IMG/VR virus record: IMGVR_UViG_2531839374_000020 | Length of the DNA: 29,761 nt | Origin: a virus | Taxonomy: Duplodnaviria; Heunggongvirae; Uroviricota; Caudoviricetes | Direction: 5' to 3' (one strand) | Shown here: one piece after another, positions 9,001 through 12,000 of the stretch | Position numbering within the stretch: the first letter of the stretch is position 1 | Layout: every line of letters starts with the position of its first letter | Position numbers: made by a program

Positions 9001-12000
9001 ACGCATGCTTTTCGGTTCCGGCTCCACCAGTACCCGGGTATTGTGGAATACCGGCATGGATTCACGGCCTGGCTTAAGGACCACCAGCCCGAGTTCCGGA
9101 ACCAGAACAGGTCGAAGTAATACCCGCACATTACCTCCAGATCCGTTGCTGGAATGTGCAGGACGGACGCGGTGGCCGTTCGGAATAAGGGAGCCTGACG
9201 AAGATTATCCAGTGACGATAATCGAGACTGAGGGCTTTCTTAATCTCGTATCCGTGTCTGCGGTAGCGCTGAATCAGCCATTCAGCCTGTTCTTCGGTGC
9301 AGGGGTCGTGCTGATACCAGTCAGATTTGAATGCATGAGAACGCCGCCCGTGCCTGCTGGCAGGCGCGGCAGAGTTATCCGAATTGTAAAATTTGGTATC
9401 GTGCGCCATCTGTTTTCTCTGCTGGCGCAGCAGGTGCCAGTTGTTCAGGCTGACGGATGGATTGTAAACCAGAACGACCAGAAAAAACAAAACCCGCCGA
9501 AGCGGGTTAAGTGCGGGTGCGTTGAGGATGCCTGACACATCAGCGGTGGCGAGGGATTTCTCCCCCGCCGGGTCTCTTACTCCTCAGGTTCGTAAGCTGT
9601 GAAGACAGCGACCTCCGTCTGGCCGGTTCGGATTCGTACCTCGCAGAGGTCTTTCCTCGTTACCAGTGCCGTCACTATGACGGTTAAACAGATGACGATA
9701 AGGGCGATTAACATCGCCTTTTGCTGCTTCATAGCCTGCTTCTCCTTGCCTTTCGGCACGTAAGAGGCTAACCTACATGTGTTCAGCATGGATTGAGCCT
9801 CAGATTAATGTTAAGCGTCTTGCAGGACGCGTAATGTTAACTGGGGCTTTTCTCTATCTGCCTTTTGGTGTTCATGCCTGAGACAGATAGCCTCAAGCAC
9901 CCGCAGTCATTCTACTTAACTAAGATTTCCCTGCAAACCGTTTTTGTCCGGCACAGTAAATATCCAACTAAACCAATAGCGTTCGCTGTATTTACCGCCA
10001 GTATTCAATGCACATGACCGCCATGAACACCCCTAAAAAAGGGCATTTATATGTCCAAACATTAATATCAAAACATCAATTTTTTCCATATACCTTGCTG
10101 TGAAGATGATGGGCATACATGATGCGAACAACCAGAACGCAACAAACAAAAACTGCAATGCGTTTTTCATTATTCCCCCTACAATCAATGTGCAATAACA
10201 TTTAAACACACCTCAATTTGGCCGGACATATAAATATCTAAACCAGAAAAAATCACTTACATAGCGTTACAAACTCTTTAGTCTAAATACTCATCGTAAA
10301 ACATTCCCCATACTTATCAGTCCGTTCCGCGCCAGGTAGCTTATTGCCTTATCTGGCAACCTATAATCAGGTTTCCGCTTTTTCAGTTGGCTGGTCGTTT
10401 AACCGACATAGTTAACCCATTAATCTGGTTGCCGGATGCTGGTGGATTTTCGCGTTTTAGTTGTTCATAAAAGTGCACAGCTTTAACCAGTTCTTCTGAT
10501 GTAACCGGGACTGGTGGGGCAGTGAATAAGGCCTGAATTTCATAGTTCGGCCTGTCGTTACAATCCTCTTTTTTCGGTACATATTTCCAGTCACCAACCC
10601 ACAACTCCCCCTGAGAGTCCATAACACCTTTTTTCACGTAGCGATATCGCCACGCTATCGGCTCTGCTTCCAGCGATGCCCGTGCAATTTTGAATAACTC
10701 GCCCTCTACTCGCGCCATCCCTGAATTGGGGTGGCATTTCGTAATCGCTATTTTTAATTTGGCTTCTTCGATTAATTGTTCTTTTGTTAATTCAGTCATT
10801 TTCATTACCGCCCTTTCAGGCGGCCTCCTGATGTTCTGAGGGTGCAGAAATCCCTCCGGTTAAGGATTAAATTTTATTTGCTGTGCTAAATTTAATTATT
10901 CAGTTTTTATTCCTGCTCTCAAAACAGCCTCTGCCATTCTGATATCCGGATTTTCTGAAATCATCTTTTCCGGCGAGTCGCAATCACCACCACATTCAGT
11001 TATGCGTTCATGACCAAAACGAATTGTGGTTTTGTGCGCATTAATCATTTGTGTAAGCGCATCTGTCAATTCTGCAATGCGTTTGTCTTTAACTTCCAGC
11101 TCTTTCAGTAAAGCCAGTACGTCAGGAGCGCTAACATCAACGACGGTTACGCGCGATTTCAGGTAATGCTCATCCGCAAAAGTTCGACCAGTTTTAAAAT
11201 ATCCATCATCCCCCTCACCTGTGCAGGCATACACAATATGCGTTCTGGAAAATATGCGCTGTATCGACATTTCATCGCCACAAACAGGACATTCCGGCAC
11301 CTGAATTGGTGAATAACGTTCACGTAATGCCTGGTAATTAGTCTTGCACACTGGCTGTCTCCTGAAAAATCACCGCATGCCCCAGTTTCTCCGCCAGCGC
11401 CAGTTTCTCCGCCAGCGCCAGTTCTGCCTTAGCGCCTGCTGACCGCTGCCAGCCTTTCAGCATGTAAATCGCATCCACACAACGAATCATCGCCATGCAG
11501 ATATCCATGTACTGCGGCTGTGTCAGCCCGTCCGGAAGTACTGCCGGGTTTAAGACGGTATGCCCTTCCCGTTTCAGTTCCTCTTCCGCATTGTGAAACG
11601 CCTCACGGTTGAAATTTTTATACCCGGTCATTGGACCGGCGATATAGACTCTCACCCTCACGCCATCACCTCCTGAAAATTACCCTGATAAAACGACAAT
11701 ATGCGCTGCATAACTTCGCTCTTCCGGCACTCGCGACAGATTATGTTTAGGCGACTGTCGTAGCGACGTATTTCTCCGTCAGGTAATGACCAGATAAGGT
11801 CCGGATCAACCGCAGATGGTTTCTTCAGCTTTGCCCTTGAGAGCTTTTTACGGGCATTTTGCCAGTCCTTACGCGCCTGTTCAGACGGGAATAACCCGTA
11901 ACCAGAGTTGTATACATCGCCACTGGCAACCAGCTCTCTGGCCAGAACGCTCATCAGATATCTTGTTGCCCCAGTTTTAGCTTCCAGTTGTCGTAACGTC

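Follow-up and report, generated by a model that had tools for sequence, protein, structure and literature searches.

The DNA analysed here (the window) is a stretch of 29,761 nucleotides, IMG/VR virus record IMGVR_UViG_2531839374_000020 (Caudoviricetes), and its minus strand carries, just upstream of a hok toxin locus, a small open reading frame (ORF) that an earlier note on the sequence had singled out as an unannotated hydrophobic frame of 45 codons. The small ORF belongs to the rightward early operon of a lambdoid, Qin-like prophage inserted next to tRNA-Ser and mtfA, and sits inside a 593-nt gap (10382..9790) between an ORF of 140 amino acids (aa) at 10805..10383 and mok/hok (9789..9577). 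This gap is the ORF-free, AT-rich region of about 590 bp upstream of hok that the note had described, and its G+C content is 40%, as compared with 50% for the whole window. The elements that make up the small ORF are the following.

10180..10171, minus strand: ribosome-binding site, composed of the Shine-Dalgarno (SD) motif AGGGGG (10180..10175) and the 4-nt spacer AATA
10170..10033, minus strand: the small ORF as a shortened copy of 45 codons, with its ATG at 10170..10168 and a premature TAG at 10035..10033
10043..10035, minus strand: C3T6 homopolymer tract, site of the frameshift, with the T6 run at 10040..10035 (C3T7 in related copies)
10034..9992, minus strand: out-of-frame remnant of the final 14 codons (LGVFMAVMCIEYWR) with the ancestral TAA at 9994..9992, placed by alignment

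Start and length of the small ORF

The small ORF of the window translates as MKNALQFLFVAFWLFASCMPIIFTARYMEKIDVLILMFGHINALF (45 codons). Its start was correctly placed by the earlier note at the minus-strand ATG at 10170, behind a good SD and spacer: the sequence reads AGGGGG-AATA-ATG, and its predicted pairing with the tail of the 16S rRNA amounts to -9.3 kcal/mol, compared with -8.5 for hok and -5.6 for mok in the same window. The spacer of 4 nt is near the lower limit of the usable range. Position -6 of the SD is polymorphic (G/A, 150:103), and a strong SD is retained either way, the AGGAGG variant of other strains having a predicted pairing of -10.2 kcal/mol. Folding of the RNA around the start gave no extra stability over shuffled sequence (z = -0.14) and no sign of a structured regulatory element. 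By itself, however, the window lends only weak significance to the small ORF. In composition-matched simulations, a chance ATG ORF of at least 45 codons appeared in 68% of cases and one of at least 59 codons in 35%, and these values fell to 2.8% and 1.4%, respectively, when a SD site was also present; because the ORF alone is unremarkable in such simulations, the case for it must rest on related sequences.

Those sequences also bear on its length. A 45-codon ORF does exist in the window, as the note had claimed, but this length is specific to the present copy and the native form, judged from its relatives, is 59 aa. The window reads CCCTTTTTTAGG (T6) where six aligned E. coli genomes all read T7, and with T7 the frame runs 14 codons further, through LGVFMAVMCIEYWR, to a TAA equivalent to window 9994..9992. 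The C3T7 tract with an intact 59-codon frame was present at 6/7 E. coli genome loci (L008, the remaining one, also has T7 and carries an insertion sequence (IS) inside the small ORF), 80/80 IMG/VR loci, 2/3 species-representative loci and 67/71 metagenome allele-1 loci, the other four being contig-end run-offs or variants, although the ranking of these sets by likeness to the intact protein biases them toward intact copies. Exact-pattern counts in IMG/VR were 2 for T6, at least 120 for T7 and 0 for T8. The product of the window keeps the first predicted helix of the protein and only 15 residues of the second, whereas the GVF and IE(Y/C)WR motifs, conserved and common to the second allele described below, survive only in the out-of-frame remnant. 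The window copy is therefore probably nonfunctional, unless T6 is a homopolymer sequencing error.

A second allele and the coding signature

The small-ORF DNA (allele 1, at least 95% identity) was found in 1566 of 5426 complete E. coli genomes (29%), and the 59-aa form of this allele always lies in a Qin-like lambdoid prophage, immediately 5' of hokD. An exhaustive HMMER search of 1.84 billion representatives recovered, in addition, a diverged homologue (P0064/P0068, MRKILMYLCISIWIVISCVPIILTSEYLTEASIMALMFGHANALCIGVFISIIYIECWR), also of 59 aa, that aligns end to end. This allele 2 is present in 1045 of the 5426 genomes (19%), where it has no RefSeq annotation, and it occupies the Rac attachment site, within a prophage remnant flanked by ttcA with an integrase fragment on one side and by uspF on the other.

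L213 4001-4180: allele 2 of the small gene, in a prophage remnant, with a hok remnant at 4235-4325

The two alleles share 59% nucleotide identity with no indel over 177 nt, many indels being found in both flanks, and they have the same start, the same stop and 44% amino-acid identity (26/59). What is conserved is thus the ORF with its coding pattern and not the DNA only, which was the outcome that the earlier note had named as fatal to its proposal. Identity at codon positions 1, 2 and 3 is 58%, 71% and 49%, and the Nei-Gojobori method gave pN 0.33, pS 0.72 and a dN/dS of about 0.19, with dS saturated. When the 72 mismatches were placed at random, 17.3 +/- 2.5 identical residues were obtained, compared with the 26 observed (P = 0.0005), and the chance of a diverged copy remaining stop-free was 3.3%. 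Of the six frames checked, the sense frame alone is uninterrupted in both alleles; T7 copies of allele 1 also leave the antisense -1 frame open, but allele 2 puts two stops in it. Residues invariant in both alleles include W13, S17-C18, P20-I21-I22, T24, L36, F38-G39, N42-A43-L44, E56 and W58-R59. Frame, start and stop are kept and nonsynonymous change is deficient in this pair, which are the features generally expected of a protein-coding gene in comparative analysis.

The population sample of allele 1 (253 copies, 35 haplotypes) contains 10 variable sites in the ORF, 9 of them nonsynonymous (A16V, M28I, I31V, M37I, H40Y, A43V, V48G, M53T and Y57C) and one a synonymous singleton, and allele 2 shows two nonsynonymous and no synonymous polymorphisms. 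The density of single-nucleotide polymorphisms (SNPs) in the allele-1 ORF (10/177) is about half of that in its flanks (23/222). From the single diverged pair we conclude that the frame has probably been under long-term constraint at the protein level, which would be relaxed in present-day cryptic prophages, since the polymorphisms within alleles nearly all alter the protein.

Copies of the small ORF were found only in E. coli and Shigella, both in a word-indexed search of 5.8 billion proteins and in a scan of species-representative genomes. Degenerate patterns detected alleles 1 and 2 and no third allele in metagenome contigs, and tblastn against phage records retrieved no phages beyond ON470612, ON470619 and PV340562. 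Inducible phages with the small ORF include PhiR42_1 of ECOR13 and vB_EcoS-640R1. A candidate relative with 52% identity (L091) was discarded, as it is a decayed copy with several indels, next to a 140-aa gene that is frameshifted too.

The description of the ORF as unannotated stands for RefSeq, which has no feature beneath the small-ORF match in 60/60 listed genomes, and fails for deposited proteins: the exact 45-aa peptide is deposited as the hypothetical protein EGJ02400.1 of Shigella boydii 3594-74, and at least 1000 contigs, ATCC 25922 among their sources, have the 59-aa form under the label 'membrane protein' or 'hypothetical protein'. The T7 allele is carried by ST131 isolates as well. 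The small ORF itself is therefore not new, because automatic pipelines have deposited it. What we did not find in the literature searched is its recognition as a conserved coding gene with two alleles, its linkage to hok, its omission from RefSeq and the strand on which it was called in phages. In the three phage GenBank records named above, the ORF annotated here runs on the strand complementary to the 59-aa gene, under the name 'hornerin' (two records) or hypothetical protein, and this is probably a wrong-strand call, judging from the comparison of alleles.

L002 3114-3365 and L300 2407-2658, minus strand: opposite-strand ORF of the phage records, equivalent to window 10008-10198 on the plus strand

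Predicted product and the hok module

As the earlier note had stated, the peptide is strongly hydrophobic (grand average of hydropathicity, GRAVY, 1.2). Hydropathy analysis found two hydrophobic segments in each allele, and AlphaFold2, run on the 59-aa form with an eight-sequence alignment, predicted helices at residues 2-26 and 28-58 (mean predicted local distance difference test score 73.8). The N-terminus begins with MK or MR, the short loop (RYMEKID or SEYLTEAS) ranges from neutral to acidic, the C-terminus reads IE(Y/C)WR (E-x-W-R), and this charge distribution suggests a hairpin with both ends in the cytoplasm.

Sequence searches with the small protein in Pfam, NCBIfam, PHROGs, PADLOC and PDB returned nothing. 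Even at E-values up to 10, neither the 45-aa nor the 59-aa form had a match in Pfam, the profiles of Hok/Gef (PF01848), GhoT/OrtT and holins included, and 0 families were found among the PADLOC defence and PHROGs phage sets; the failure of these profile tests places the protein outside the Hok, GhoT and holin families. With 59 aa (45 in the window) and its hydrophobicity, it nevertheless falls within the size range of type I toxins, which are hydrophobic and shorter than about 60 aa. It resembles Hok/Gef in being, by prediction, a small, hydrophobic, prophage-borne inner-membrane peptide, encoded on the same strand as hok and linked to it in both alleles, but it differs in having two predicted helices instead of one and no periplasmic C-terminal domain, and the ORF has no sequence relationship to Hok, no mok-like leader ORF and no predicted antisense RNA: the Rfam sok match is restricted to 9902..9727, and no promoter-like site was seen on the opposite strand. 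GhoT and OrtT are small two-helix membrane toxins, GhoT having 57 aa. The likeness to them lies in a nearly equal size, two predicted transmembrane helices and hardly any extramembrane sequence; the small protein differs in lacking a hidden Markov model match and any identified GhoS-like partner gene. Class II holins and pinholins of lambdoid phages are likewise small phage proteins with two transmembrane helices, as predicted here, but the charged hydrophilic C-terminal tail of holins is absent (the tail is only EYWR) and the ORF lies in the early (nin-like) region, away from the endolysin; in the near-identical prophage of E. coli FDAARGOS_944 the holin/lysozyme cassette is about 4 kb downstream (L299 24198-25371). 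E. coli K-12 has a class of formerly unannotated small inner-membrane proteins, hydrophobic and under 60 aa, that were found by tagging and initiation profiling and mostly have one helix. The small protein shares with them its size, its hydrophobicity, its escape from annotation and its recognition by SD and conservation, and differs from them in its two helices and in its absence from two syntenic K-12 loci, the hokD region of Qin and the right end of Rac. By analogy, the closest resemblance would be to GhoT/OrtT-like two-helix toxins and to the unannotated small inner-membrane proteins.

The features downstream and upstream of the small ORF are these.

9902..9577, minus strand: intact hok/mok/sok locus (Rfam sok 9902..9727, mok 9789..9577, hok 9732..9577)
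9937..9909, minus strand: predicted hok promoter TTTGCA-17-TAGAAT, 55 nt 3' of the ancestral stop of the small ORF
10302..10171, minus strand: conserved leader of the module in an alignment of 92 copies, with no sigma-70-like promoter predicted

The promoter-like site at 9937..9909 fits the start of the hok mRNA, because the Rfam hok/sok model begins at 9902. A strict consensus scan from ORF140 to the small ORF, covering both strands nearby, detected no promoter or terminator other than this hok promoter, and Rfam at gathering and at permissive thresholds found near the small ORF the hok/sok element alone, which is located downstream. A TTGACA upstream of allele 2 was rejected as a promoter: it is a perfect -35 element, but it has no acceptable -10 and is not conserved in allele 1.

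On the upstream side of about 10302, the related copies continue as three unrelated sequences, and the genes found upstream differ as well. Because of this mosaic boundary, the small ORF and hok appear to travel as one module. In allele 2, a 3' fragment of hok begins 55 nt past the stop (L213 4235-4325 compared with window 9664-9570, 53/66 identical), about 270 nt with the hok promoter, leader, mok, sok and the 5' part of hok having been deleted and the small ORF left intact; since allele 2 also precedes a hok fragment, the order small ORF-hok would be ancestral to both alleles. On the other hand, many hok loci, those of the 933W type among them, have no small ORF, which makes it dispensable for hok function. 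K-12 MG1655 does not carry it either: homology to the window stops at 9746, 14 nt before the hok ATG, and relBE stands in place of the hok leader, mok, sok and the small ORF (L301 2025-2289 compared with window 9483-9746), which fits the view of K-12 hokD as a truncated hok locus. ISs have entered the module independently at three loci, namely an IS3 at codon 15 of the ORF in L008, an IS at 3195-4400 of L033, between the small-ORF stop and hok, and an IS150 in L005, from 1961 onward, at the position of hok. IS elements are reported beside chromosomal hok loci, and the insertions at the small ORF and hok recall these. The divergent downstream sequence of L033 and L151 is due to an inserted IS and does not mark a mosaic boundary.

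According to the annotation of a near-identical prophage, the genes run on a single strand throughout, in the order helix-turn-helix protein (cro-like), YdaT, O-like, DUF977, DUF4406, Ea22-like, ORF140, small ORF, hokD, hypothetical protein, DUF968 (YdfU), RusA, Q, tRNAs, holin and lysozyme. The prophage of the window is plainly decaying, IS insertion included. An IS3-family (IS600-like) transposase ORF (7512-8330, plus strand) abuts the DUF968/YdfU-like gene (8371-9129, minus strand), which is cut at 8371 to 252 aa as compared with 352 aa in related prophages, and the integrase (17000-18036, plus strand) is split into ORFs of 105 and 252 aa at 17276, where the window has A6 and FDAARGOS_944 has A7, a homopolymer change of the same kind as that in the small ORF. 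Two tRNA genes flank mtfA (18067-18153, minus strand, and 19145-19217, plus strand) and correspond, by comparison with FDAARGOS_944, to tRNA-Ser, the attachment site next to the integrase, and tRNA-Asn. Inside the DUF4406-like gene, a perfect 18-nt tandem repeat (11382-11423, 2.3 copies) makes the reading frame six codons longer (LALAEK repeated) than in FDAARGOS_944 and L033. Elsewhere in the window, Rfam gave a full-length match to CssrB, the chromosome-encoded Shigella small RNA B (609-788, minus strand, 227 bits), and a match to the ALIL pseudoknot, a frameshift signal of IS elements (26178-26294, minus strand, 116 bits), which marks another IS copy.

Interpretation of the locus

We favour, as the likely explanation, that the window holds a frameshift-truncated copy of a genuine small gene for a 59-residue two-helix inner-membrane protein. 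As no promoter or terminator of its own is predicted, the gene would depend for its mRNA on read-through of the early-right transcript and for translation on its own strong SD site; the product would insert in the inner membrane as a hairpin with both ends cytoplasmic, and may act within the membrane as a non-essential phage accessory factor. In the window, the loss of one T from C3T7 would bring a TAG in frame after codon 45 and remove half of helix 2 together with the conserved C-terminal motif, either as a true mutation or as a homopolymer sequencing error. The reading proposed in the earlier note is thus upheld as regards a coding small gene for a hydrophobic membrane peptide, given the coding pattern relative to allele 2, and abandoned as regards a native product of 45 aa; its suggestion of a membrane-active toxin or a host-takeover peptide gains no support from the analysis. 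Several observations weigh against the explanation that we favour. Chance ORFs of this length are frequent in a T-rich spacer, the coding signature comes from one diverged allele pair with saturated dS, and the polymorphisms within alleles (11/12 nonsynonymous) do not point to purifying selection in recent times. Allele 2 has a weak SD (-4.8 kcal/mol predicted), and the Prokaryotic Genome Annotation Pipeline (PGAP) of NCBI calls neither allele among the genomes listed. Moreover, no family or structural homologue hints at a function, and a full-text literature search returned nothing on the small ORF and no expression data.

Part of this would be accounted for if the small ORF were a chance frame in a T-rich noncoding spacer, whose DNA was kept since the hok module is young and horizontally spread: hydrophobic residues are an automatic outcome of T-rich DNA, frames of at least 59 codons arise in 35% of simulations, PGAP calls the ORF in no listed genome, 11 of the 12 polymorphisms alter the protein and no homologues were found outside Escherichia and Shigella. 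We consider this unlikely, because alleles that share just 59% of their nucleotides have identical start, stop and length with no indel and only the sense frame open in both, conservation by codon position follows the order 2 > 1 > 3 with a dN/dS of about 0.19, amino-acid identity exceeds by 3.5 standard deviations what randomly placed mismatches give, an ORF as long as this with a SD arises by chance in 1.4% of simulations, and SNP density is about half of that in the flanks. It is far more improbable still that the real gene is the overlapping ORF of 63 to 83 codons on the opposite strand. The antisense -1 frame is open across the region in T7 copies and gene callers picked it in ON470612, ON470619 and PV340562, but it has two stops in allele 2, is split into pieces of 31 and 32 aa in the window and runs counter to the surrounding operon; moreover, it shares its third codon positions with the sense frame, and an open sense ORF would by itself be expected to keep it open. 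A membrane-damaging toxin like the type I toxins or GhoT, that is, a second killer beside hok whose truncations reflect selection against harm, seems to us as doubtful as the chance frame. The small, very hydrophobic product with its predicted 59-aa two-helix hairpin, the hok linkage retained in both alleles, the independent truncating slips deposited and the ISs within the ORF (L008) or just past it (L033) are what such a toxin would lead one to expect, yet no antisense promoter or terminator is predicted on the opposite strand and Rfam has no match there, the Hok, GhoT/OrtT and holin Pfam profiles and PADLOC give no match, and intact copies far outnumber all others, which is unexpected for an unregulated toxin. 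We give slightly less credence to a 59-aa protein that is a functional partner of Hok, be it a membrane modulator, an immunity or helper factor, or a second effector of the killer module; the synteny of the small ORF and hok across alleles with 44% identity and their shared mosaic unit would support such a role.

That T6 is a sequencing or assembly error, so that the source genome holds an intact 59-codon gene, has considerably more to commend it than any of these alternatives, although we still regard it as the lesser possibility. T7 is nearly universal among copies, the assemblies behind the 45-aa deposits (S. boydii 3594-74, DEC12C, STEC_C165-02 and an STH-series record) are drafts or built from long reads only, on platforms prone to homopolymer error, T8 forms are deposited mostly from read-derived Logan assemblies, and the window integrase is likewise broken at an A6/A7 run. 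Two points speak for a real mutation instead. T6 is the sole 1-nt indel in 4.3 kb (window 8373-12716) relative to FDAARGOS_944, the closest complete genome, and the assembly is therefore not riddled with homopolymer errors; in addition, the prophage is visibly decaying, with its DUF968 gene truncated by the IS600-like element and its integrase frameshifted, so that a genuine pseudogenising slip fits. The truncation has also recurred, T6 being found on at least two haplotypes (I31 and V31) and a separate CCC-to-CC slip leading to the same 45-aa length. As T6, T8 and CC variants are deposited from several lineages, a further, rather unlikely possibility is that the C3T7 tract serves as a slipped-strand on/off switch between a full-length and a truncated product.

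If the small gene is what we propose, the peptide first noticed in the window is probably a dead or mis-sequenced copy, and the native gene represents an annotation gap: allele 1 occurs in 29% and allele 2 in 19% of complete E. coli genomes, each counted separately, and neither has a RefSeq entry in the sampled genomes, while the three phage records that cover its DNA annotate the opposite strand. Surveys of small proteins in K-12 would have been blind to it at the two syntenic loci, from which it is absent. A membrane protein tied to hok, among the best-studied toxin loci, could bear on hok biology or on the interaction between prophage and host.

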